Source: a virus
Length of the DNA: 54,317 bases
IMG/VR virus record: IMGVR_UViG_3300045391_001808
Coordinates: 1 to 54,317 of that record
Strand: one strand, 5' to 3'
The translations under genes and the position numbers were made by a program. Each line of letters opens with the position of its first letter. The first letter of the stretch is position 1. The notes beneath the pieces are model-generated. The model was not told the DNA's origin and did not search any database. It saw only the letters and a program-made list of their open reading frames with translations. This document shows positions 5,097-54,317 of the stretch, piece after piece.

Positions 5097-5611
5097 TGAA
5101 CCCATTCGACCTGGTATACGACGCACTCTGGCAGATGGTACTTGACAGTACCCCGATGTCCGAGCTCGTCAAGCCAGGCAACATCATCAGGTACGACCAG
5201 ACGTCCAGAGACCCTTACAAGAAGGAAGTAGCGACCGAGGATTTGCCAGAACTGGTGCTGACGTCAGAAGGTGCCGACGACATCAACATGCACGCGACGT
5301 CTTGCACGTCGATGTTGCGCAGGACGTACGCCTTCATGATCAGCACTGGGGACTTCCGCCTGCAGAAGATACTGCACCCCGTAGAGTGGGCGCTCTTCTG
5401 CAGCATGTCGGACTTCCGATCGCGCCTGGGATCGCTCCAGTGGGAGGGCGAGAACTTCGTCAAGGAAGCAAACTTCGTCAGCGTGCTCAACGGTACGTCT
5501 GACCCAGACAAGAATCGCGGTATAAGAGGCTGGTCGGCAGTATGGCGTTGTCGCGTGGCGATGCACTTCCGGACAGCCAGCCTTAGAGCATACACAGCAG
5601 GAGGGTCGTGA
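5096..5611 (+). CDS. head-tail joining / tail completion protein (DUF3168-like, tentative)
   Basis: 171 aa with a TAATG overlap with the upstream gene. The N-terminus MNPFDLVYDALWQMVLDSTPMSELV and its position before the tail tube gene support the call. Confidence 0.55.
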   Translation: MNPFDLVYDALWQMVLDSTPMSELVKPGNIIRYDQTSRDPYKKEVATEDLPELVLTSEGADDINMHATSCTSMLRRTYAFMISTGDFRLQKILHPVEWALFCSMSDFRSRLGSLQWEGENFVKEANFVSVLNGTSDPDKNRGIRGWSAVWRCRVAMHFRTASLRAYTAGGS

Positions 5612-6477
5612 TGTCAGTAAGATCCGGTGTCTACGCAGCAGTGAACGGCATTGCCACCCTTCGCAACTGGGTGCTGAGTCGCACGTCGTCTACCAAACCG
5701 TACGTGGCCAGCAACACGCTGGGCGGCACGGGCCGCCGACGTGGCGTGATCGACTGGAGCGGGTCGCTGTCGCAGTACGGTGGCATTCCAGACGCCATGC
5801 CGGGCGAGACGTTCGCGTTCGCGGGCTACACGTCACCAGGTACTGGCGTCCTCGGGGACGACGGTACGGTCTACGCAGGCAACGCGATCGTCGACTCTGT
5901 TGCTGTCAACTGGAACTGGGAGACGGGCGACCCGATCAACATCTCGACTAACTTCGGTGGCAACGGCCCGCTCACCTCGTCGCAGACTGACGCGGTCGTG
6001 GACGAGACGTTCCCGGCAGTGCCCACGCCACTGGAGCTGCCGTTCCAGATACTGGACCTCGACGGCGGCTCGGGCGGGTGGTCGGAGATATGCGACGTGA
6101 CGTCGGCCACGCTGAACATCACGGCCGCGAACAAGACGTACGCCAACTCCTGCACCGACGGGATCATGATGCGGAAGCCTGGCCCGATCGACTGGACGCT
6201 CAGTGTGACGTTCCAGAACGACGACTTCATGAACGGCTTCCCGTTCGACATCAACGACGTGGTCGGCTTCCGCCTGCCCGTCGACGAAACGAACTACTGG
6301 GAGCTGCTATGGGGCATCGTCCAGGGGTATTCTAACTTTACTGTCGACCGCGAGACGGGCAACATCATCGCTGTCACGGTCAACTTCGAGATGTGTGGGT
6401 TCGATCACGACACAGAGAGCGTCGGGCGTATCGTACTGCCAGGCGCCGCTGAACCATGGTGGGGTGAGGCTGCATGA
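5611..6477 (+). CDS. putative major tail (tube) protein
   Basis: 288 aa. AGGAGGG lies 5 nt upstream of ATG 5611. The gene sits immediately before the chaperone pair and tape measure. The call is by synteny only. Confidence 0.6.
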   Translation: MSVRSGVYAAVNGIATLRNWVLSRTSSTKPYVASNTLGGTGRRRGVIDWSGSLSQYGGIPDAMPGETFAFAGYTSPGTGVLGDDGTVYAGNAIVDSVAVNWNWETGDPINISTNFGGNGPLTSSQTDAVVDETFPAVPTPLELPFQILDLDGGSGGWSEICDVTSATLNITAANKTYANSCTDGIMMRKPGPIDWTLSVTFQNDDFMNGFPFDINDVVGFRLPVDETNYWELLWGIVQGYSNFTVDRETGNIIAVTVNFEMCGFDHDTESVGRIVLPGAAEPWWGEAA

Positions 6478-14182: not shown

Positions 14183-14200
14183 TACTACATACTACTGGAG
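14183..14200 (+). promoter_or_regulatory. conserved early leader/RBS cassette, copy 1
   Basis: TACTACATACTACTGGAG, 6 nt upstream of ATG 14207. Confidence 0.6.
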
Positions 14201-18292: not shown

Positions 18293-18367
18293 GGTGCACT
18301 CGTCTAACGGTAGGACGCTGCCCGGTACGTAGAGGCAGAAATGAGGGTTCGACTCCCTCATGCACCG
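18293..18367 (+). tRNA. tRNA-like element with non-canonical anticodon loop
   Basis: Acceptor ggtgca/tgcacc pairs 6 of 7. The D arm is gtct-AACGGTA-ggac. The T arm is gaggg-TTCGACT-ccctc. The anticodon stem ctgcc/ggcag is 5 bp but encloses 11 nt (cggtacgtaga). No CCA is encoded. Confidence 0.4.
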
Positions 18368-18409
18368 CTTTCTTGTGACGGACCCGACGACTCTCCAATC
18401 AGAGCCAAG

Positions 18410-24507: not shown

Positions 24508-24806
24508 AGAAGCACGACCTCAAGCCAGACCACCACCAGATGTACCGACTGGTGGAGTGCCTGGAGAAGGACGGCACGTCGCGAGCGCTGAGAGCTCGTG
24601 ACACGTTACTAGCACTGATGTCTCGGTCGTTCATGCCAGCCGCGTCGTGGTTCATCGGTCCGGGCCTTCGAGATCTAGGAGTGGAGATAGATGCTGACGT
24701 TCGACAACGGCGGAAGACTGATAACTCGCGAAGACGAGCTGCCACCCGTGCCGGAAAGAATCGAGCGGCTGTACCTCGACTTCGAGACGAGAAGCGGCGA
24801 TCCTAA
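24453..24806 (+). CDS. hypothetical protein
   Basis: 117 aa from ATG 24453 (GGAG upstream). The 3' part overlaps the polymerase start by 116 nt, so the true extent is uncertain. Confidence 0.35.
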   Translation: MAESNVTGTVLATITNCIKKHDLKPDHHQMYRLVECLEKDGTSRALRARDTLLALMSRSFMPAASWFIGPGLRDLGVEIDADVRQRRKTDNSRRRAATRAGKNRAAVPRLRDEKRRS

Positions 24807-27612
24807 GCTCGACTCGCTCCACCCGTGGCACAACTGCAGGCCGTGCGGGTTCGCGGTCACGTGGGACGACGTCCCGGGCGCGTGGTACGTCCCCGTGGAC
24901 CACGACTTCGGGCCAGTCGTGCAGCGCGAGGCGGCCTACACGTGGCTCCGTGACATAATGTCTCGGAGTCACGTGTGGGTCAACCACAACGTGAAGTACG
25001 ACGCGCACGTGTACGAGCTGAACGTCGGGAGGATCCCTCCAGGCGTTCAGCTCCGGTGCACGGTCGTGCGGGCGAAGCTGGTCGACTCGGACCGACAGTT
25101 CCGTGGTGGGTACGGCCTGGACGTGTTGAGCTCGCAGTGGCTGCACGAGGACATCAGTGCCGTGGAGCAGGCGATGGCACCTTACCTCTACCGCTGCAAG
25201 GACTACGGCGTGGTGCCGTCGGACGTCATGGGTTCGTACGGCTGCCAGGACGTGATCACAAACCGTAGGCTGGATCGTTACATCGACAACGCTATGGCAT
25301 CCCAATGTTGTGAGATAGCGCTGGTAGAGCAGTCGCTGACTCGCGTGCTGCTTGACGTGGAGCAGCGTGGCATGATGGTCGACCCCACCGAGCTCAAGAT
25401 CGCCGAGCTCAGGACGATGACCCAGATGCTGCAGCTGGAGGCAGAGCTTGAGGTTCTCGTCGGCAGGTCGTTCAGGCCGCACGTCAACGAGGACTGCTAC
25501 GACGTGCTGTGCACGCAGTACGGGCTGCCCGTCATGGGGTGGACCGACAAGACAGAAGACGGCGAGGAGGGCGGCAACCCGTCGTTCGACAAGCAGGCAC
25601 TCGCGGGCTACATGGTGCACCCACTGGCCCCGAAGGACGTCGTGAGTCGGATCGTAAAGTATCGCAAGCTGTCTACGTTCAAGTCGCTGTTCGTAGACGT
25701 GCTGTCTACCGAGCACGTGGACGGCGTGATCCACACGCAGTACAACCAGCTCGTGCGCACCGGCCGGCTCAGCTGCAAGTCACCCAACATGCAGCAGCAG
25801 GACAAGTCGAGCAAGATGCTGTTCCACCCGCGACCTGGGTACAGCTTCATGTCGTGCGACTACTGCTTACCGGCTGGCACGCTGATACCGACGCCGTACG
25901 GTGACAAGCCGATAGAGATAGTTGCCGCCAACTTGATGCCAGTACTGTCTGTGACAGACAGTGGAGAGCTTAAATTCTGCGCGACCTCGAGAGGTGGAAG
26001 AGTTGGATTCGGCCAGATATTCAAGATCACTTTCACCGACGGGACTACATTCGAGTGTACGAGCGACCATCCGATGATGAGACTGGACGGCACGAGTGTT
26101 AAGTGCAAGGACTTGGTCTCAGGAGACAGGATGGCACACGTTGTTGACACGACGATAGGGAAATATACATACTGGAAACTTAAGAGCAGCATCTACAGCA
26201 AGCACAAGCTTGTAGCTGAGTGGGCGACAGGATCTAAGATAGATAGCGACCTCTACCACGTGCACCACATCGACGAGGACAAGAATAACTGGTGCGTGAG
26301 TAACCTAGAGGTAAGAGGTTACTCTGAGCACATATCAGGCCATAGTAGGCAACGATATCTGTCGCAAGATCATGTAAAGCGAGTAGAAGCACTGCGCGAA
26401 GCTCTTAAGAATCGAAGATCATACGCATATGATGAGAACCCAAACTGGCAGGGTGGTAAGATCGTGGTTGCATGTGACACGTGCGACCGACCATTCGAGA
26501 AGTGGCCTTCGCAGGATACTAAATACTGCTCGAAAGAGTGCCGTAGCGCTGGCCGATCAGCGAGTCATCAGAAGCGAAGAGTTGAAGTTACCTGTGAGAC
26601 GTGCAGTAGGACCTTCGAGACTCTGCCCGGAAGACCTCGAGTCTTCTGCTCGAGAGCTTGCTCTAACCGATCACCTGTAAAGACTGCAAAAGACGATAAG
26701 AACTATGAGGTGCTAAGCGTCGAGTACGCTCGCGACGACTGGTACTACAGCATAACTGTTCCTGAGACTGGTACTTACGTCACTACGAACGGGCTCATAA
26801 ATTCACAGAGTCAGATCGAGTTCCGGTTCATAGTCCACTATATCGACGAGCCACACGCCGTGGAGGCTTACAACCGCGACCCAGATACAGACTTTCACAC
26901 GTGGGTCGCCGAGCTCTGCAAGATCAAGAGGAAGCCGGCCAAGACTGTCAACTTCATGGTGGCCTTCGGCGGCGGCAAGAAGAAGACGATCAAGACGCTG
27001 TCGAAGAACGACGACGTGATCGGCGACATCACGCAGCAAGTCGAGAAGCTAATCGCAGAGGGCAGGGTGGACCGCGCCGACGCGAAGCTGGTGTTCGACC
27101 AGCTCTGCGAACGGAAGGCCGTTGACATGTATGAGACCTACCACGCCACGCTGCCCAACCTCAAGCGCACGTCCCGACGCGCCGCGTCAGTCTGCGAGCG
27201 GCGGGGCTACGTCTACACAATCATGGGCCGGCACCGGCACATCCCGAGGGACAAGGCGCACATAGCGTTCAACACGATCAACCAGGGCAGTGCTGCTGAC
27301 CTGATGAAGGAGCGCACCGTGGCGCTGGCCGAAGCGATCCGTGGCAGGGACATCCACATCGTCGCGAGCGTGCACGACGAGGTGCTGCTCGAGATGCCAA
27401 CTGCTGTCGCACACGATCCTCGGACGGCTCGTGACCTCGCGAACCTGATGGAGCACCCGCCGTTCGAGCTGCGAGTGCCCATCAGGTGCAGCATAGGAGT
27501 GAGCGACCACACGTGGGCGCAGGCCGGCAGCGACGACGTCAGCGGCCCTGTGTCCTACGATCCCAGCGAGTGCGGGCTGTTCGATCACGTTCCTAACACG
27601 TCGACACACTGA
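24691..27612 (+). CDS. family A DNA polymerase (3'-5' exo + pol) interrupted by an intein
   Basis: Exo I is LYLDFET. Motif A is split as SCDY / SQIEFR. Motif B is KPAKTVNFMVAFGG and motif C is VASVHDEVLLE. Confidence 0.9.
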   Translation: MLTFDNGGRLITREDELPPVPERIERLYLDFETRSGDPKLDSLHPWHNCRPCGFAVTWDDVPGAWYVPVDHDFGPVVQREAAYTWLRDIMSRSHVWVNHNVKYDAHVYELNVGRIPPGVQLRCTVVRAKLVDSDRQFRGGYGLDVLSSQWLHEDISAVEQAMAPYLYRCKDYGVVPSDVMGSYGCQDVITNRRLDRYIDNAMASQCCEIALVEQSLTRVLLDVEQRGMMVDPTELKIAELRTMTQMLQLEAELEVLVGRSFRPHVNEDCYDVLCTQYGLPVMGWTDKTEDGEEGGNPSFDKQALAGYMVHPLAPKDVVSRIVKYRKLSTFKSLFVDVLSTEHVDGVIHTQYNQLVRTGRLSCKSPNMQQQDKSSKMLFHPRPGYSFMSCDYCLPAGTLIPTPYGDKPIEIVAANLMPVLSVTDSGELKFCATSRGGRVGFGQIFKITFTDGTTFECTSDHPMMRLDGTSVKCKDLVSGDRMAHVVDTTIGKYTYWKLKSSIYSKHKLVAEWATGSKIDSDLYHVHHIDEDKNNWCVSNLEVRGYSEHISGHSRQRYLSQDHVKRVEALREALKNRRSYAYDENPNWQGGKIVVACDTCDRPFEKWPSQDTKYCSKECRSAGRSASHQKRRVEVTCETCSRTFETLPGRPRVFCSRACSNRSPVKTAKDDKNYEVLSVEYARDDWYYSITVPETGTYVTTNGLINSQSQIEFRFIVHYIDEPHAVEAYNRDPDTDFHTWVAELCKIKRKPAKTVNFMVAFGGGKKKTIKTLSKNDDVIGDITQQVEKLIAEGRVDRADAKLVFDQLCERKAVDMYETYHATLPNLKRTSRRAASVCERRGYVYTIMGRHRHIPRDKAHIAFNTINQGSAADLMKERTVALAEAIRGRDIHIVASVHDEVLLEMPTAVAHDPRTARDLANLMEHPPFELRVPIRCSIGVSDHTWAQAGSDDVSGPVSYDPSECGLFDHVPNTSTH
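25864..26802 (+). mobile_element. intein with HNH homing-endonuclease domain, inserted in PolA motif A
   Basis: Block A is CLPAGTLIPTPYG (Cys1 at 25864), block B is ECTSDHPMM, HNH is HVHHIDEDKNNWCVSNLEVRGYSEHISGH, and there are two CxxC...CSxxC repeats. Block F/G is WYYSITVPETGTYVTTNGLIN followed by Ser (Asn codon 26800-26802). The segment is visibly lower in GC. The 3' boundary is ambiguous by 6 nt (SQ|SQ). Confidence 0.8.
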
Positions 27613-27961: not shown

Positions 27962-28204
27962 ATGTTCACCGCAGTCAAGCAGACCGACACTCACAAGCAG
28001 TTGTTCAAGGCTGCGAAATCATTACTGACAACATTTAGAGCAGACATAAATGGCGCTGACAGTTATGTCTACTTGCTTAATGACCTGATATTCATAGAGG
28101 ACGCTGATGACGAGACGCGCTCAACGTCGTGCATCCGTTTCACCTTGTACGATTGGAAGCCAACTGACATCATCGACGCGCTCAACGCATGGCTCGCCCA
28201 ATAG
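27962..28204 (+). CDS. small early protein, hypothetical
   Basis: 80-aa ORF behind a promoter plus leader cassette. Confidence 0.6.
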   Translation: MFTAVKQTDTHKQLFKAAKSLLTTFRADINGADSYVYLLNDLIFIEDADDETRSTSCIRFTLYDWKPTDIIDALNAWLAQ

Positions 28205-28291
28205 CCGAAACGGCCGCACGGCCGTCCACGCGATCTTACCCACGCGTGCTGACGAGGCAGGTTACCTCACGTACACAAGGAGAGTTAGACC

Positions 28292-28729
28292 ATGGCAGTA
28301 GTTCACAAGCACGGTAAGCCAGCACAAGCAGCCGCTCCCGCAGCACCAGCATCGGCCGCTCCCGGCACGAAGGACGAGAAGGCAAAGAAGGTCAAGCGCG
28401 AGCGCGTCCAGTACCCGATTCCCGAGGGCGGCCTCGAGATCTATCCGACCGACTACGACTCGAAGAAGTTCAAGCCGCTGAAGAAGAAGGACTTCAAGGA
28501 CGAGGCGCTCTACATCGAGGCTCGTGCCACCCACCTCGAGACGCAGGCCAAGAACTTGCGCGAGGAAGCCGCCAACATGCGTAAGATGGGCGGCGTGAAG
28601 GACAAGGGCAAGGCGAAGCGCCTGCTCGCGATGCAGAAGCGGATGGCCGAACTCAAGGCGTCGCTGGCCGGGGAAGGTGTCGACGTCGACGCCCTGCTGG
28701 CCTCGATGGCTGCACCGACCGAGGCGTAG
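28292..28729 (+). CDS. Lys-rich basic hypothetical protein
   Basis: 145 aa. AAGGAG lies upstream. It has an Ala/Pro N-terminus followed by K/E-rich helical sequence. Confidence 0.6.
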   Translation: MAVVHKHGKPAQAAAPAAPASAAPGTKDEKAKKVKRERVQYPIPEGGLEIYPTDYDSKKFKPLKKKDFKDEALYIEARATHLETQAKNLREEAANMRKMGGVKDKGKAKRLLAMQKRMAELKASLAGEGVDVDALLASMAAPTEA

Positions 28730-28743
28730 TACTTCCCGTCACA

Positions 28744-28779
28744 GGCAGTCTGGGCCGTCGATTCGACACCCAGACTGCC
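28744..28779 (+). other. perfect 11-bp hairpin (RNA processing site or U-less terminator)
   Basis: ggcagtctggg (28744-28754) pairs with cccagactgcc (28769-28779) across a 14-nt loop. There is no U-tract. It lies immediately upstream of leader cassette copy 4. Confidence 0.5.
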
Positions 28780-28794
28780 GGGATCGGGGCGCAT

Positions 28795-28808
28795 TACATA
28801 CTACGGAG
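28795..28808 (+). promoter_or_regulatory. conserved early leader/RBS cassette, copy 4
   Basis: TACATACTACGGAG, 6 nt upstream of ATG 28815. Confidence 0.55.
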
Positions 28809-29047: not shown

Positions 29048-29056
29048 GTCGCCATC

Positions 29057-29076
29057 ACATACTACATACTACGGAG
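29057..29076 (+). promoter_or_regulatory. conserved early leader/RBS cassette, copy 5
   Basis: ACATACTACATACTACGGAG, 6 nt upstream of ATG 29083. Confidence 0.6.
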
Positions 29077-34958: not shown

Positions 34959-35294
34959 ATGAACGAGTCGGCACGGACCAGGAAGCTGTGCGAGGGGCTG
35001 AGGAAGCTCAACGCGATGGTGTACGCAGCAGTGGCGGGCGAGAAGGGGACGAGTGGGTGGCCGGACCGCTATGTCCACCATCGTACGTGGCAGGGGTGGC
35101 TGGAGTTCAAGGACGGCACGAGGAAGTGCACGCCGCTGCAGCAGGAGATCATCCGAGGGATGAACGCCCGCTGTTGCGGAAGCGCGTACGTCGTAAGGCA
35201 CGGAGCTAACACGATCGAGAATCACGACGGTGAGGTGCTGGCGACGTTCGACGGCACCGCGACGTCACTACTGGGAGCTCTGGAGGACTTATGA
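34959..35294 (+). CDS. VRR-NUC domain nuclease
   Basis: GWPDRYVHHRTWQGWLEFKDGTRKCTPLQQEIIRGMNARCCGSAYVV follows the VRR-NUC pattern (G.PD...E.K....L...Q). Start ATG 34959 (the ORF opens at GTG 34932). Confidence 0.65.
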   Translation: MNESARTRKLCEGLRKLNAMVYAAVAGEKGTSGWPDRYVHHRTWQGWLEFKDGTRKCTPLQQEIIRGMNARCCGSAYVVRHGANTIENHDGEVLATFDGTATSLLGALEDL

Positions 35295-35539
35295 ATAAGA
35301 TAGTACTGACCGGAGTCGTGATGACCTTCATCACGCTGGCGGCGTTCATCATACTGGCGTTCACGATCGGATACGACGCCGGACGGCACTCGCGACACCG
35401 CGAGGTCGTAGACTACATCACCCGACAGAGCGTGCTGACACGACGACTGATACGGCTCGGCGACGAGCAGACGATGCGTGAGGTGGAGAAAGAATCCCTA
35501 ACACTGGAGAAAGACAATGGGTCAGATGGTAATTCCTAG
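35291..35539 (+). CDS. small membrane protein
   Basis: 82 aa. The N-terminal TM segment is IVLTGVVMTFITLAAFIILAFTIG. Confidence 0.55.
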   Translation: MNKIVLTGVVMTFITLAAFIILAFTIGYDAGRHSRHREVVDYITRQSVLTRRLIRLGDEQTMREVEKESLTLEKDNGSDGNS

Positions 35540-36383
35540 GACGTACCTGCTGGGCGTGACGCAGCCCGACCGCGACGAGCTGCTGCGGTACCTGCGAGAG
35601 ACTGGACAGGAAGAGTTCATGAGGCAGTTCGAGGAGGCAGAGCAGGAGGTGGGCGGGGCGCTGTGTCTCGTCAGCTTCTACGCCAAGCTGTGCTACAAGT
35701 CGCTGGTGCTCGGTAAGAACAGCAACGTCACCGCGACGCGAGACATCCTTGAGAATCTCACAGGATGTCTCGCGCAGGGGCACGGGTCCGTCTTCGAGCA
35801 CGTGACGCTGAACTTCGTGACGACGAACTGCTCGCGGGTGTTCACGCACGAGCTCGTACGACATCGCGCGGGCACGGCGTTCTCGCAGACGAGCGGGCGG
35901 TACGTAAGCATCGACTCGCTGGACTTGGTGCTGCCGCCAGAGCTGACACGCGACACGCCCTGCGAGTGGTGTCGTGGCGAGGGTACGGAAGAAGGGTGCG
36001 ACACTAGGTGTCGCGCGTGTGACGGTCTCTGCACACTCGACAAGGTGTACGAGAGGGCCAGGTCAGACATCGAGATCGTGCTGCAGAACCTGCGAATGGC
36101 GACGGTGCCCGAGCATGCAGACTTCGCGACCAAGAAGCGCCTCACGTCTGCCATACGACGGCTCGCGCCGAACGGGCAGGCCAACGAGATCGGGTGGTCT
36201 GCCAACGTGCGGGCGCTGCGACACATCATGGAGATGCGCACGTCGCCCGTCGCAGAGTGGGAGATGCGGCAAGTCTTCAACGACGTGTACGACATCGTCG
36301 CCGCACGCTGGCCACTGATGCTGCACGGCGCTGAGGTCACTCATGAGGGTGGCCTCATCGCTGTGGAGGGACTTGGAGTATGA
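35517..36383 (+). CDS. thyX: flavin-dependent thymidylate synthase
   Basis: The ThyX signature is HELVRHRAGTAFSQTSGRYV (RHR...SQxSxRY). GHGSVFEHV and ANVRALRHIMEMR are also present. Confidence 0.85.
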   Translation: MGQMVIPRTYLLGVTQPDRDELLRYLRETGQEEFMRQFEEAEQEVGGALCLVSFYAKLCYKSLVLGKNSNVTATRDILENLTGCLAQGHGSVFEHVTLNFVTTNCSRVFTHELVRHRAGTAFSQTSGRYVSIDSLDLVLPPELTRDTPCEWCRGEGTEEGCDTRCRACDGLCTLDKVYERARSDIEIVLQNLRMATVPEHADFATKKRLTSAIRRLAPNGQANEIGWSANVRALRHIMEMRTSPVAEWEMRQVFNDVYDIVAARWPLMLHGAEVTHEGGLIAVEGLGV

Positions 36384-36601
36384 GGTGGTTCGACGTCTCG
36401 CTGCCCGGCGTGGCCGGTCCGGTGGTAGGTCGCGAGCTTGCGAAGGGGATGGTCGAGCTGAGGATAGGCACGTGGGTGCGCCTCACCGTCACGAAGCGTT
36501 TCCTGCAGGACAGCGGCGCCCGGGCCACCGGGTGGCGGGACGAGCCTGGAGAGTGGCGTGGCGTTCACGCTACACTGATACGACTGCCAGAATGGGTGTG
36601 A
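36380..36601 (+). CDS. hypothetical protein
   Basis: 73 aa with an ATGA overlap with thyX. Confidence 0.45.
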   Translation: MRWFDVSLPGVAGPVVGRELAKGMVELRIGTWVRLTVTKRFLQDSGARATGWRDEPGEWRGVHATLIRLPEWV

Positions 36602-36602
36602 C

Positions 36603-36935
36603 ATGAAAGACCTAATCGAACAGGATGGCGAGTTTTACGTGGCTACTGGGGAAGTGCGAAAACCAAAGAGAGGCGAATGGTTTTCAAGCCAGCCAGATAA
36701 GTGGCTGTTGATGTACGACGTAGACGCAGAGGCGACACGCGAATACCAAGTCTACCACGAGCTCGACAAGCAGACCGTGAAGTTTGTGCTGGACTATAAG
36801 CCGGAAGGCGTGTCGTTGACATTGAGGGAGTACTTAAGAAATTCGTCAAAAGATATGACACCTTATGCACACGACCCGTATCTCAGGCAATGGGCAACCT
36901 ACATGCTCGACGCACTCGAACGATTGGAGAAGTAA
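36603..36935 (+). CDS. hypothetical protein
   Basis: 110 aa. This is the start of a lower-GC stretch of small genes. Confidence 0.6.
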   Translation: MKDLIEQDGEFYVATGEVRKPKRGEWFSSQPDKWLLMYDVDAEATREYQVYHELDKQTVKFVLDYKPEGVSLTLREYLRNSSKDMTPYAHDPYLRQWATYMLDALERLEK

Positions 36936-36939
36936 ACCG

Positions 36940-37113
36940 ATGGGACCAACATTCTTGATGACGGTTTGGTGTGGCATGAGCATTATGTCGATAAAGTGTT
37001 TTTTGAAAACGGACGCCGGCCATGCGTATGCGGAAGCGTACTGGCTTGTGCTTTCGGCGTTTGCTTTAAGCAATGCAGTTGCGTGGGCTGTCAGAATGAG
37101 CAAGGAGAAGTAA
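36940..37113 (+). CDS. small membrane protein
   Basis: 57 aa (MGPTFLMTVWCGMSIM...LVLSAFALSNAVAWAV). The start lies within the repeated junction GGAGAAGTAAACCGATGG. Confidence 0.45.
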   Translation: MGPTFLMTVWCGMSIMSIKCFLKTDAGHAYAEAYWLVLSAFALSNAVAWAVRMSKEK

Positions 37114-37117
37114 ACCG

Positions 37118-37234
37118 ATGGACAAAACATATCGCGTGAAGCTGCTGGATTTTGTGAAGCTTGCTGACGGCCACTGGGTGGCACAAACTGCCTTGGTCCG
37201 ATACGGATATTTGCGTTTCCCGACCAATTGGTAA
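37118..37234 (+). CDS. very small hypothetical protein
   Basis: 38 aa (MDKTYRVKLLDFVKLADGHW...), below the ORF-track cutoff. It starts in the second copy of the junction repeat, which supplies GGAG. Confidence 0.35.
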   Translation: MDKTYRVKLLDFVKLADGHWVAQTALVRYGYLRFPTNW

Positions 37235-37267
37235 TGCTCGTAATGAATTAACGAGATTGGAGAGCGT

Positions 37268-37438
37268 ATGAAAGTTACTGTGACGTGGCTGGACGGCAGC
37301 AAGCAGAGCTTCCTGGCTGCCGACGAGTACGACGAGGACCCGGTGCACAACCGGGCCACCTTCTACCTCGCCGAGAGTGGGAAGCCTGTCGTCGAGGTGA
37401 ATCTCGAGGCCGTGAGGTTTATCTACTTCGAGTATTGA
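37268..37438 (+). CDS. small hypothetical protein
   Basis: 56 aa (MKVTVTWLDGSKQSFLAADEYDEDPVHNRATFYLAESGKPVVEVNLEAVRFIYFEY). GGAGAG lies upstream. The stop overlaps the -35 box of the next promoter. Confidence 0.45.
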   Translation: MKVTVTWLDGSKQSFLAADEYDEDPVHNRATFYLAESGKPVVEVNLEAVRFIYFEY

Positions 37439-37463
37439 CACCGGGAACTCTGCAGGTTATAAT
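37435..37463 (+). promoter_or_regulatory. consensus sigma70 promoter
   Basis: TTGACA (37435-37440), 17-nt spacer, TATAAT (37458-37463). Confidence 0.8.
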
Positions 37464-37753
37464 AGGTGCATGGAAATGCAAGCGATATCAGGATGTGTTG
37501 CACAAGTGTACCTGGTCGCGGAGAAGTTAAAAAATTACACGATGCAAATGATATATGGTGACAGTTCTATATACTACTACTACTACTACTACTACTACAA
37601 AGGTCTTTTTACCTATACAGTTCTCTTCAGAGACTGTTTGAATTGAATTCATATCGATTTCATTTGCATAGTGTCGAATTTTGACTTTTGGGCGGCTCGG
37701 TACACTTGAGCTGCACTTGTGAGTTTCGCTTGCATCATTAGGAGATCCGTAGA
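37464..37753 (+). ncRNA. long structured 5' leader / candidate regulatory RNA upstream of the Zn-ribbon-sigma operon
   Basis: AT-rich, with no ORF carrying an RBS. There are three nested inverted repeats: 37476-37485/37726-37735 (10 bp), 37501-37508/37714-37721 (8 bp) and 37542-37551/37660-37669 (10 bp). They enclose (TAC)9. Confidence 0.5.
37572..37598. repeat. (TAC)9 microsatellite
   Basis: Nine perfect tandem TAC units lie in the non-coding leader. The same TAC-based unit builds the early leader cassette. Confidence 0.95.
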
Positions 37754-37897
37754 ATGAAGAAAGAACTACCAGAAGACAGAAGATGCCCTGTCTGCAACAG
37801 GAAGATAAGCTCTCGCAGTAGGTGGGCAGTGAAGCGGCCTATCCCAGTCTGTCGTAGGTGCGCGAGGTCTGGAGCAGGGGAGGCTGTCGTCCGATGA
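37754..37897 (+). CDS. small zinc-ribbon protein
   Basis: 47 aa (MKKELPEDRRCPVCNRKISSRSRWAVKRPIPVCRRCARS...). GGAG lies 9 nt upstream. It is below the ORF-track cutoff. Confidence 0.55.
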   Translation: MKKELPEDRRCPVCNRKISSRSRWAVKRPIPVCRRCARSGAGEAVVR

Positions 37898-38355
37898 CGC
37901 GAAAATATGATGCGACGAAGAGGCGCGAGGACGCGGCGATCCGAAAGGCGCGGCAGGCGATGGAGTTCCTCGAGCGGATGGAGCGCCGCGAGCGGGTGAG
38001 AGCTCGCAGGAGGCCACGGCCCGAGGTGCCCGAGGACTACAGGTGCCCGAGGTGCGGGAAGACCCGTCTGCGACGCAGGCAGTGGCGGCTGGCCGAGGAC
38101 GGTAGCACCGTGTGCGTGACCTGCAGCAGGCAGCCGAGACCGCTGCCGCCAGGATGTGTCTGCCCGAGGTGCCAGAGGAGACTGCCGCGGCGTGAGCGGT
38201 GGGACATGCGCAGCGAGCCGCTCGTGTGCAGGCGCTGCTCGGCCGAGAGGAAGGAAGCTATGGAGGTACTCAGTGATGTCAGGACTTCAGTGGCTGGAGG
38301 AGAATCCCAGAGCAGTCCGATGGCTGTTGAGGAAGTACCCGAGCCACATGCATGA
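37894..38355 (+). CDS. double zinc-ribbon protein, Arg-rich
   Basis: ATGA overlap at 37894. It has two more copies of the CPxC...RW...VCxxC module (YRCPRCGKTRLRRRQWRL...VCVTC and CVCPRCQRRLPRRERWDM...VCRRC). Confidence 0.6.
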   Translation: MTRKYDATKRREDAAIRKARQAMEFLERMERRERVRARRRPRPEVPEDYRCPRCGKTRLRRRQWRLAEDGSTVCVTCSRQPRPLPPGCVCPRCQRRLPRRERWDMRSEPLVCRRCSAERKEAMEVLSDVRTSVAGGESQSSPMAVEEVPEPHA

Positions 38356-38740
38356 CGACCTGTGGGGCGTGTGCGTGGATCGCGCCGAGGCGATCATGGC
38401 GACGTGGGACGGCACGAAGGGTGCGACGATGGGCTATCACATGGTCAAGAACCTGCGGTGGTACATGTGGAAGTGGGTGCGCCGCAGGCAGCGTGACGCA
38501 GAGCGCCATCCCGAGAACTCGGAGCGCGTGGGGTCTACATACGTAGCTCCTGACACGCTCGAGCACAGTGACGAGGTGAGGTCGGTCATGGACCGCCTCA
38601 CGCCGTACGAGCGGCACATCGTGGTGCTGCACGCGGTAGACGGCATGAGCTTCGAGCAGGTCGCCGAGCTCGTGCACAGCAGTAAGAACACCGTGAGGCT
38701 GCAGTACCTGGCAGCCGTGGAGAAAGCAAGATGCCGATAG
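38276..38740 (+). CDS. ECF-like sigma factor
   Basis: Region 4 HTH is LTPYERHIVVLHAVDGMSFEQVAELVHSSKNTVRLQYLAAVEKAR. A region 2-like segment is YHMVKNLRWYMWKWVRRRQR. ATG 38276 has GGAGG 9 nt upstream. Confidence 0.75.
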   Translation: MSGLQWLEENPRAVRWLLRKYPSHMHDDLWGVCVDRAEAIMATWDGTKGATMGYHMVKNLRWYMWKWVRRRQRDAERHPENSERVGSTYVAPDTLEHSDEVRSVMDRLTPYERHIVVLHAVDGMSFEQVAELVHSSKNTVRLQYLAAVEKARCR

Positions 38741-53660: not shown

Positions 53661-54317
53661 ATGAAGCGATTAGCGATTATCTTTTGGTTGTGTGCGAGCT
53701 TCTGCAATGCGGCAATCACAGTAGTCAGCAGCGCGACCGCTGGCAGTAGTGACCGCTTGGTTGTCACAACGTCGGCGATTGACACAACTGGAGCAACGTT
53801 ATTTGTTGTTGCTACCGGCATGTTTCCTGGCTCGGGCGGTGGGTTTACGTTGTCTGATTCGCAGACCAATACATGGACTGCACTGACGGCGCAGACGAAC
53901 ACTGTGCAATCTCGTCTGTACTATTGCGCATCGCCGTCTACATCTGCGTCTCACACGTTTACGCTCACCAACACAAACTCCAACAATGAATATCCATCTA
54001 TTGCAGTCGTGGCATTCAGCGGAACCGCTGCATCGCCATTCGATCTGCAGGGAGGCGCAACGGCAACATCGACAAGCATTCAGCCAGGCAGCTTGACGCC
54101 TAGCGAAAATAATTGCGTTGTTGTTACAGGGATCTCGGGCGAAAGCGGTGCATCTACGCTATCGGTGTCTGCTGGATGGACGAAAGTGGCTACGGTCTAC
54201 GGCGCAGGTGCACACGAGGCTGGATGCTTGGCCTACAAAATTCAAACAAGCGCCTCCGCAGAAAATCCAACCTGGACTCCGGCGAGTAGCACACAATTAG
54301 CTGCAACCATTGCCTCA
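53661..54317 (+). CDS. 5' part of wrap-around ORF; putative tail-associated/receptor-binding accessory protein
   Basis: ATG 53661 lies 5 nt after the fibre stop and the ORF is open to the window end. The N-terminus MKRLAIIFWLCASFCNA parallels that of the fibre. It continues in frame at bases 70-195 on the circular map. Confidence 0.6.
   Translation, partial: MKRLAIIFWLCASFCNAAITVVSSATAGSSDRLVVTTSAIDTTGATLFVVATGMFPGSGGGFTLSDSQTNTWTALTAQTNTVQSRLYYCASPSTSASHTFTLTNTNSNNEYPSIAVVAFSGTAASPFDLQGGATATSTSIQPGSLTPSENNCVVVTGISGESGASTLSVSAGWTKVATVYGAGAHEAGCLAYKIQTSASAENPTWTPASSTQLAATIAS
54249..54317. repeat. terminal direct repeat, second copy
   Basis: Identical to bases 1-69. Confidence 0.9.

Follow-up and report, generated by a model that had tools for sequence, protein, structure and literature searches.

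A putative structured 5′ leader RNA upstream of the Zn-ribbon/sigma operon of an uncultivated phage

The virus record IMGVR_UViG_3300045391_001808, analysed over its whole length (positions 1 to 54,317, hereafter the window), is predicted to carry a large RNA element directly upstream of an operon for Zn-ribbon proteins and a phage sigma factor. With moderate confidence, resting on modelled folding and on genome comparison, this region can be regarded as a structured leader RNA that acts in cis at the 5′ end of the Zn-ribbon/sigma operon and is probably a processing stalk sensitive to translation. The leader lies between a consensus promoter and the Shine–Dalgarno (SD) sequence of the first operon gene, and most of it is taken up by a single long inverted repeat, the architecture of which recurs at the same gene junction in related phages. 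An initial annotation, made from the DNA letters alone, had proposed here a structured leader with nested inverted repeats and nine TAC units, which could serve as a riboregulator, as a sponge for a factor recognising early leaders, or as both.

The leader holds the longest inverted repeat of the genome

The three nested inverted repeats of the initial annotation do occur where it had placed them, but they are really parts of one imperfect inverted repeat with 79-nt arms (37476–37554 and 37657–37735, + strand), which are 71% Watson–Crick complementary and lie 102 nt apart. No inverted repeat of the genome is longer, the runner-up measuring 30 nt. The middle pair of the former set, CACAAGTG/CACTTGTG, had been correctly located but was taken 11 nt out of register; the true in-register partners are CAAGTGTACC and GGTACACTTG (37503–12 and 37699–708), which form a perfect 10-bp block. 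The 5′ arm contains the direct 10-mers ATGCAAGCGA (37476–85) and ATGCAAATGA (37542–51), and the 3′ arm contains TCATTTGCAT (37660–69) and TCGCTTGCAT (37726–35). The motif ATGCAARYGA has four copies in the genome, all of them in the leader (two direct and two inverted), where 0.31 were expected and none of 100 shuffles reached four. The outermost 3′ arm ends at 37735, 5 nt before the GGAG of the SD (37741–44, + strand), just as first noted.

The + strand RNA is predicted to fold at −100.5 kcal/mol (z = −7.4), with a stem of ~64 bp that runs from about the seventh nucleotide of the transcript to 5 nt before the SD. Its 64 pairs come in unbroken runs of 10, 10+6, 11 and 10 bp with small loops between them, the largest internal loop of the stem being 4×4 nt, and the single-stranded part is apical. 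The predicted helix thus offers the roughly two or more turns of near-continuous double-stranded RNA (dsRNA) that mark an RNase III substrate, and dsRNA of such length is a natural substrate of this enzyme. The apex comprises an unpaired, G-free segment of 33 nt (37568–37600, + strand), holding (UAC)9 at 37572–37598, and two small hairpins (37601–37637, + strand; one at 37601–14 and one at 37617–37). The second agrees with the small apical hairpin described before and is followed by UUUGAAUU, with no terminator call; nor was an intrinsic terminator called anywhere on the + strand between 37470 and 37753.

No Rfam family (6S RNA, T-box, riboswitches and known phage RNAs included) matched the window or seven related loci at gathering scores, and lowering the threshold to E ≤ 10 for 37300–37900 returned two chance eukaryotic matches only. 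A 6S-like RNA polymerase-binding RNA was considered and rejected, as the stem has no large central bubble (its largest loop is the 4×4 one) and no 6S model matched. An inverted duplication of a small gene was likewise rejected, the differences between the arms being spread as 6, 9 and 8 over the three codon positions.

The perfect TTGACA-17-TATAAT promoter that had been reported is indeed present on the + strand (37435–37463), with TTGACA at 37435–40, a 17-nt spacer and TATAAT at 37458–63. This sigma70-type element is one of only two 12/12 matches within 27–46 kb and belongs to the five strong sigma70-type promoters found genome-wide by a regular-expression scan; the stop codon of the upstream gene (37436–38) falls within its −35 element. 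Because the −10 element ends at 37463, transcription is predicted to start at A37470 (+ strand), the seventh base after the −10, a purine and the A of an ATG, a placement that uses the standard spacing between −10 and +1. The leader is the AT-richest segment of the genome, with a minimum of 31% GC in 150-nt windows and 39% over its whole length, against ~60% genome-wide. The earlier description of ~290 AT-rich nucleotides lacking any open reading frame (ORF) with a ribosome-binding site (RBS) is correct as regards the RBS, but a 58-codon ORF opens at the predicted transcription start.

The same architecture recurs at the same gene junction in related phages

Related phages were represented by ~20 IMG/VR contigs retrieved by their TerL proteins (48–60% identity). 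Their gene order is a VRR-NUC-like nuclease (g34932 homologue), an intergenic region of 200–600 nt that is AT-rich in most of them, a basic Zn-ribbon gene, sigma, p241, terL and portal. A long-range inverted repeat that closes the intergenic region was found in five independent lineages, namely the window, the L010/L011/L014/L016 clade, L005, L009 and L002, and the distance from the end of the 3′ arm to the start codon of the Zn-ribbon gene is 3–29 nt across them. In L009 and L002 the sigma gene lies 2–3 kb further downstream; the element goes with the basic Zn-ribbon gene and not with sigma itself.

The arms differ in size and arrangement from lineage to lineage. In the L010 clade (L010, L011, L014, which equals L015, and L016), an arm A of 25–29 nt pairs with B, 160–166 nt downstream, while D, a direct copy of B at +111/112 nt, ends beside the SD, and C, which repeats part of A, pairs with D in a 15-bp hairpin. 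The L005 clade has 30-nt arms 177 nt apart, and the arms of L009, GGCAACTGATCAG and CTGATCAGTTGCC, lie ~145 nt apart, the 3′ one ending 3 nt before the ATG. In L002 the region 5600–6215 forms a giant hairpin domain of ~600 nt (−243 kcal/mol) with arms of ~55 nt, a C/A-rich 5′ half and a G/U-rich 3′ half. Simple repeats were observed at the apexes of three of these analogues: (TTA)5, surrounded by the arms, in L009 (4760–4935), (TAA)4, within the repeat, in L005 (699–935) and (GATA)3 in L010 (7211–7531). A palindromic core, CTGATCAG, with a GATC site, is common to the arms of several relatives.

The leaders of the L010 clade can be aligned with one another, and it is from this clade, not from the window leader, that the covariation evidence comes: both sides had changed in 24 of 86 consensus pairs, a number reached by none of 500 shuffles and compared with 3–5 in slid controls, and several G·U pairs are invariant. 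The initial annotation had suggested conservation and covariation among relatives as a check, and the architecture proved to be kept in five lineages, with covariation in the L010 clade. A scan of IMG/VR for further leaders of this clade returned the same five contigs only, and a loose-pattern metagenome scan gave 120 mostly random matches, among them one true, already known locus.

Mismatches in the arms point to a folded + strand

In register, the two arms of the window have 56 Watson–Crick positions, 8 G·T, 1 A·C and 14 others. The long-range repeats of the relatives gave the same ratio, with 8 G·T against 1 A·C when shared positions were counted once, so that the pooled mismatches amount to 16 G·T versus 2 A·C. 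Chance would be expected to give ~60% G·T, the + strand being somewhat G+T-rich, and 16 of 18 has a binomial p of ~0.01. Since G·T is tolerated in place of a pair only if the + strand is the one that folds, the excess over A·C argues for the + strand as the folded strand, and in sequence terms the bias points to selection on it. In the relative L011, the + strand folds at −114.6 kcal/mol and the − strand at −71.6 kcal/mol. With a promoter immediately 5′ and an SD immediately 3′ of the helix, a transcribed RNA is therefore the economical reading.

Translation probably reaches the 5′ arm

The 58-codon ORF (37470–37646, + strand; MEMQAISGCVAQVYLVAEKLKNYTMQMIYGDSSIYYYYYYYYYKGLFTYTVLFRDCLN) spans the 5′ arm and the apex and is a candidate upstream ORF (uORF), which would be leaderless because it starts exactly at the predicted transcription start. 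It reads (UAC)9 in frame as nine Tyr codons and ends with a stop codon 11 nt ahead of the 3′ arm. An ATG at +1 (±1) followed by at least 50 open codons occurred in 0.34% of shuffled leaders (P ~0.003, post hoc), and frame 0 outscores the other two frames. Its GC content at third codon positions (GC3) is 0.49 versus ~0.8 typical of the genes of this phage, which speaks against a real gene.

In the relatives, it is the upstream nuclease ORF that reaches the element. Its end falls within the 5′ arm in L010 and L014; in L016, L011 and L009 it runs 25–40 nt past the arm, and in L002 it stops 3 nt short of it. As upstream ORFs reach the 5′ arm in most lineages, ribosomes appear to traverse or touch this arm, and the long-range helix is thus probably gated by translation.

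Shifted by one base, (TAC)9 reads as (ACU)8ACA, a run of nine Thr codons in a 28-codon ORF (37555–37641) that has no SD. The only tRNA of the phage is a tRNA-Thr(GGU) (18293–18368), and its match to the Thr run is probably a coincidence.

The (UAC)9 tract and the early-leader cassettes

The nine TAC repeats noted initially form a perfect array (100% matches), and the statement that UAC is the unit of an early-leader cassette also held, with six cassettes found, all directly 5′ of an SD. The cassette (T/C)ACUACAUACUAC is G-free and stands immediately before the SD of six early genes; as (T/C)ACTACATACTAC, it was located on the + strand at 14183–95, 14470–82, 27936–48, 28795–804, 29056–72 and 30033–46, directly 5′ of GGAG, and the copy at 29056–29072, for example, reads CACATACTACATACTAC and is followed by GGAGG. 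Four of the six follow consensus sigma70-type promoters (14138, 14426, 27894 and 29019), from which the cassette lies 8–16 nt downstream, followed by GGAG and ATG; the fifth strong promoter of the genome is that of the leader. The heptamer ATACTAC has 10 copies versus 2.0 expected, all on the + strand. The (UAC)9 tract, predicted to be single-stranded, can be seen as an idealised repeat of the cassette.

The cassette is absent from the related phages, and their apexes carry other simple repeats; (TAC)9 may therefore be a slippage product tolerated in an unconstrained loop. The repeat number, which had been suggested to be possibly variable, showed no variation: the sole other copy of the locus, in L001, is 100% identical over 1,096 nt and has nine repeats too; metagenome and viral collections yielded zero matches to other copies of the (TAC)n locus.

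The early transcripts of this phage clearly make use of other intercistronic RNA elements. A hammerhead type II ribozyme (28203–28266, + strand) scored 38 bits against a gathering score of 37, with both the CUGACGA and CGAAAC cores present, and sits between the first two early genes (27962–28204 and 28292–28729). A possible processing site is a stable intercistronic hairpin (28726–28797, + strand; −43 kcal/mol, z = −4.1) directly upstream of a UAC cassette; in its outer stem, GUAGUAC is paired with this cassette, which belongs to the following gene.

Proposed mode of action

On the reading as a structured leader, host RNA polymerase would transcribe the region from the consensus promoter, and the transcript would fold into one closed domain, in which the ~64-bp helix holds out an apex of 100 nt with the G-free (UAC)9. 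The long-range helix would serve as a cis-acting control and a processing stalk: cleavage by RNase III could free the apex RNA and leave the operon messenger RNA (mRNA) with a short 5′ end, and the intact helix could shield the 5′ end while leaving the start codon accessible. Translation would gate the helix, by way of the leaderless uORF in the window and of the end of the upstream gene in the relatives. The promoter match, the fold, the strand bias and the shared architecture are the observed parts of this scheme; the site at which transcription begins, cutting by RNase III, the use of the uORF by ribosomes and the sign of any influence on sigma expression are what we infer.

Thermodynamic modelling was applied to the simplest scheme, in which the helix hides the RBS and translation from upstream exposes it. 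The SD of the window is ~0.6 unpaired with or without the hairpin, and when the 5′ arm was masked, the predicted openness of the Zn-ribbon AUG fell from 0.68 to 0.16–0.20, so that a closed helix would, if it had any effect, favour initiation. A switch that works by sequestering the RBS is not favoured, since the modelled accessibility did not change consistently. The riboregulator leader proposed in the initial annotation therefore stands in part: it is promoter-driven, highly structured and untranslated in appearance, and it tolerates G·U on the + strand, but clear sequestration of the RBS is absent from the modelling. A riboregulator role remains plausible.

Several observations weigh against the reading as a leader RNA. 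One relative, L017, has no such structure, and a nhmmer search with the L010-clade profile detected no homology between the window leader and those of the relatives, the sole alignable stretch being TTAGGAGAT at the RBS; the window leader is therefore a positional and architectural analogue and not a demonstrable sequence homologue. Taken alone, the window gives p = 0.035 for 7 of 8 in the mismatch-bias test. The − strand of the window also folds strongly (z = −6.4 to −7.0), which makes energy alone undecisive and leaves the RNA case for the window to its 8:1 mismatch bias and its context, while G·T is the least harmful mismatch in single-stranded DNA hairpins too, where the same bias would be expected. 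The likeness of the two direct 10-mers goes beyond the need of a simple hairpin. Masking of the 5′ arm in seven relatives gave no consistent change in RBS accessibility, and the SD of the window is not sequestered. Finally, the transcription start, the processing and the translation of the uORF are themselves predictions.

Alternative explanations

A role of the region as DNA is a weaker rival to the leader RNA. The region could be a site recognised by terminase, an operator array or a replication origin that transcription activates, with an AT-rich core that unwinds or bends and the four ATGCAARYGA copies as protein-binding sites, and we regard this as unlikely. It would account for the location of these copies, found nowhere else, in the AT-richest segment of the genome, with the same 66-bp spacing in both arms and more alike than pairing needs, although the complementarity spans the whole 79-nt arms and not just the 10-mers. 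The primary origin of T7 consists of a strong promoter followed by AT-rich DNA, which the leader resembles, and a family A polymerase and a primase-helicase are among the phage's genes; yet there is no GC-skew inflection at 37.5 kb, 10 kb separate the leader from the replication genes, and the segment 27613–27961, right after the polymerase gene, makes a better candidate for an origin. This second AT-rich non-coding region contains three copies of TATCTATTT (27661–89, iteron-like), two copies of a 19-nt repeat (27853–89) and the first early promoter (27894), and is the likelier place for the replication origin and for early control. The position of the element upstream of the packaging genes would suit a terminase site, but the contig ends of the relatives do not coincide with the element, and its 3′ arm is in every case directly adjacent to the RBS of the gene that follows. 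While both strands of the window fold about equally, the pooled mismatch bias is strand-specific, and in the relatives the invariant G·U pairs and the asymmetric fold of L011 also speak for RNA. An HNH–cos arrangement was rejected as well: the upstream nuclease looks to be of the PD-(D/E)xK/VRR-NUC type by motif inspection (its PHROG match reads 'endonuclease' only), and the contigs end elsewhere.

The uORF would be central to a leader-peptide sensor, in which the helix forms or not according to whether ribosomes advance or stall on the Tyr run, and the operon, like one under an attenuator, senses translation capacity or charged tRNA-Tyr. Such a sensor seems rather improbable. A short ORF with a run of a regulatory codon is present, since the ATG stands at the predicted +1, 58 codons remain open in a stop-rich sequence (P ~0.003) and (UAC)9 is read in frame as Tyr9; the ORF extends over the 5′ arm and ends 11 nt short of the 3′ arm, its frame scores best of the three, and in five relatives an upstream ORF also reaches into the 5′ arm. 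The transcription start on which all this hinges is only a predicted one, and the low GC3 and the lack of third-position bias among the arm differences (6, 9 and 8) are not what a coding sequence of this phage would show. The leader has no intrinsic terminator, only the hairpin at 37617–37 with its weak UUUGAAUU tail, and masking the Tyr run left the predicted openness of the RBS unchanged. The cores of the relatives have stops in all frames and thus no conserved peptide. The (UAC)9 tract also invites the thought of a trans-acting sponge, in which the leader or its excised apex titrates a factor that recognises the UAC-rich early cassettes, thereby coupling the shut-off of early genes with the switch to late ones. 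The tract is the idealised, apically single-stranded repeat of (T/C)ACUACAUACUAC, which precedes the SD of six early genes, and the closing helix is long enough for RNase III, by which a discrete RNA would be released; but no RNA-binding candidate for the cassette was found among the early genes, the cassette is absent from the relatives, which have (GATA)3, (TTA)5 or (TAA)4 at their apexes instead, and G-free tracts may merely keep RNA unstructured. An antisense partner for (UAC)n was rejected, none being encoded on the + strand of the genome, and the sponge is accordingly given little credence. A combination of the processed leader with these two ideas, a translation-gated RNA timer of the early-to-late switch that includes helix processing and titration by (UAC)9 RNA, is speculative and quite improbable, though not to the same degree as the sponge by itself. 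Ribosomes on the Tyr9 uORF (in the relatives, at the end of the upstream early gene) would hold the helix open; once closed, the helix would be processed, which would license expression of the Zn-ribbon/sigma operon and release a (UAC)9-bearing RNA, and this RNA would titrate a factor or ribosomal site that serves the UAC-cassette early mRNAs. Least probable of all, and in our view very unlikely indeed, is a non-functional inverted duplication, or what is left of a small mobile palindromic element, in a gap between genes that tolerates such sequence. The AT content foreign to the genome, the divergence of the arms to 71% identity and the lack of sequence conservation in the relatives would fit such an origin, but not the recurrence of the architecture at one gene junction in five lineages or the strand-biased mismatch spectrum. 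A miniature inverted-repeat transposable element or another mobile origin was rejected, as the flanks (TGGAA and CATTA) show no target-site duplication and no other copies were found in the genome or in the public collections scanned; a scan of genome contigs for the paired 10-mers gave 10 unrelated tandem repeats and no inverted copies.

Genomic context of the element

The first 70 nt of the window are identical to nt 54248–54317, and it therefore represents a circular assembly of a complete phage genome of ~54.25 kb (~60% GC), with nearly all genes on the + strand. These include genes for tail proteins, an SNF2 helicase, a primase-helicase, a family A DNA polymerase with an intein, ThyX, a ligase, terminase and portal; the polymerase gene (24691–27612, + strand) is split by the intein, which has an HNH endonuclease domain. 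No DNA-level relative was found among 50,697 phage records, and the nearest isolate, MW202621, shows no synteny with the window.

The leader is followed by the SD (GGAG, 37741–44) and the first operon gene (37754–37897, + strand, ATG at 37754), which encodes a 47-aa basic Zn-ribbon protein. The next gene (37894–38355, + strand) encodes a 153-aa protein with two further copies of this Zn-ribbon, weakly similar to TFIIS/RPA12-type ribbons, and is followed by the gene for a phage sigma factor (38276–38740, + strand; Sigma70_r4_2, E = 4.5e-9; PHROG sigma factor families). In the window and in the relatives, the first gene 3′ of the element always encodes a very basic protein with the ribbon motif (L)P.DRRCP.C...SR.W...C..C, of which the window has three copies in two proteins (37754–38355). 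A PDB sequence search with the Zn-ribbon protein returned weak generic ribbons only, and word-indexed searches and IMG/VR scans for relatives of the sigma factor, the 153-aa Zn-ribbon protein and a 110-aa protein returned the query alone. The basic Zn-ribbon protein could be a nucleic-acid-binding autoregulator. The corresponding genes of the relatives were located in L005 (965–1228), L010 (7543–7743) and L017 (7108–7434), the last with a long, Arg/Lys-rich N-terminus.

Unlike the relatives, the window has ~2.1 kb of accessory genes (35291–37438, including ThyX) between the nuclease gene and the leader, and this block is an insertion. Just upstream of the leader, GGAGAAGTAAACCGATGG is repeated at 36925–36942 and 37103–37120, before two tiny low-GC ORFs (36940–37113, 57 aa, membrane-like; 37118–37234, 38 aa).

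Comparison with known systems and implications

In phage lambda, the promoter PL is followed by nutL, an RNase III-sensitive structured region and the RBS of N, and a 2002 study reportedly showed that RNase III modulates the translation of N. This leader is the closest described functional analogue of the element. Both have a strong early host-type promoter and a highly structured leader of ~200–300 nt directly before the RBS of a key transcription regulator; for lambda, a strong early promoter and ~200 nt of highly structured RNA before the N RBS are described (PMC5725501). The window differs in having no recognisable nut or boxA–boxB element and no sequence or Rfam match, in its regulator, which is a sigma factor with Zn-ribbon proteins whereas that of lambda is an antiterminator, and in its much longer helix (~64 bp) with a microsatellite.

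RNase III stalks, such as the R sites of T7 early mRNA and those of the 16S and 23S rRNA, share the long-distance pairing of flanks that loops out an internal RNA. They also lie between cistrons of phage early transcripts, and the window phage has other intercistronic RNA elements. The T7 hairpins are only ~50–60 nt long, whereas the element encloses 260 nt in the window and up to ~600 in L002, and cleavage is here a prediction. Attenuators (trp, his, pheA) resemble the window in that one strand of a regulatory helix is overlapped by an ORF in which a single codon is repeated in a row, and the coat–replicase coupling of MS2 resembles the relatives, in which the upstream cistron ends in the 5′ arm and ribosomes must melt the helix. 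In contrast to both, the window has no terminator, would use leaderless initiation and does not clearly sequester its SD, and the relatives have no conserved peptide. Late activators of the RinA/ArpU type, found upstream of terS in siphophages (PMC3152322), are likewise small sigma-like region-4 regulators; their genes stand directly ahead of the packaging genes and follow a control region under tight regulation. They are described as acting in temperate Gram-positive phages through promoter and DNA control, whereas the control region of the window would be a long structured transcript.

Taken together, the features first noted are borne out and stand out statistically, and the leader is probably a structured, processed phage 5′ leader that controls a master regulator, and probably a new, uncatalogued regulatory RNA element at the early–late junction of an uncultivated phage group. 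The timing of the hand-over from host-driven early transcription to a phage sigma factor is known in detail for only a few model phages, and here an uncultivated phage group sets a large structured RNA at the junction between host-driven and sigma-driven transcription, differing in sequence, alike in architecture and belonging to no catalogued family. If the element controls the expression of the Zn-ribbon and sigma genes, it would represent a new post-transcriptional switch of late gene activation and a compact example of translation-coupled long-range RNA folding, and the UAC-rich early leaders together with the (UAC)9 loop would indicate a hitherto undescribed RNA-recognition step in the early translation of this phage. 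Should the timer reading hold as well, it would define a previously undescribed class of cis- and trans-acting phage RNA across an uncultivated siphophage group.

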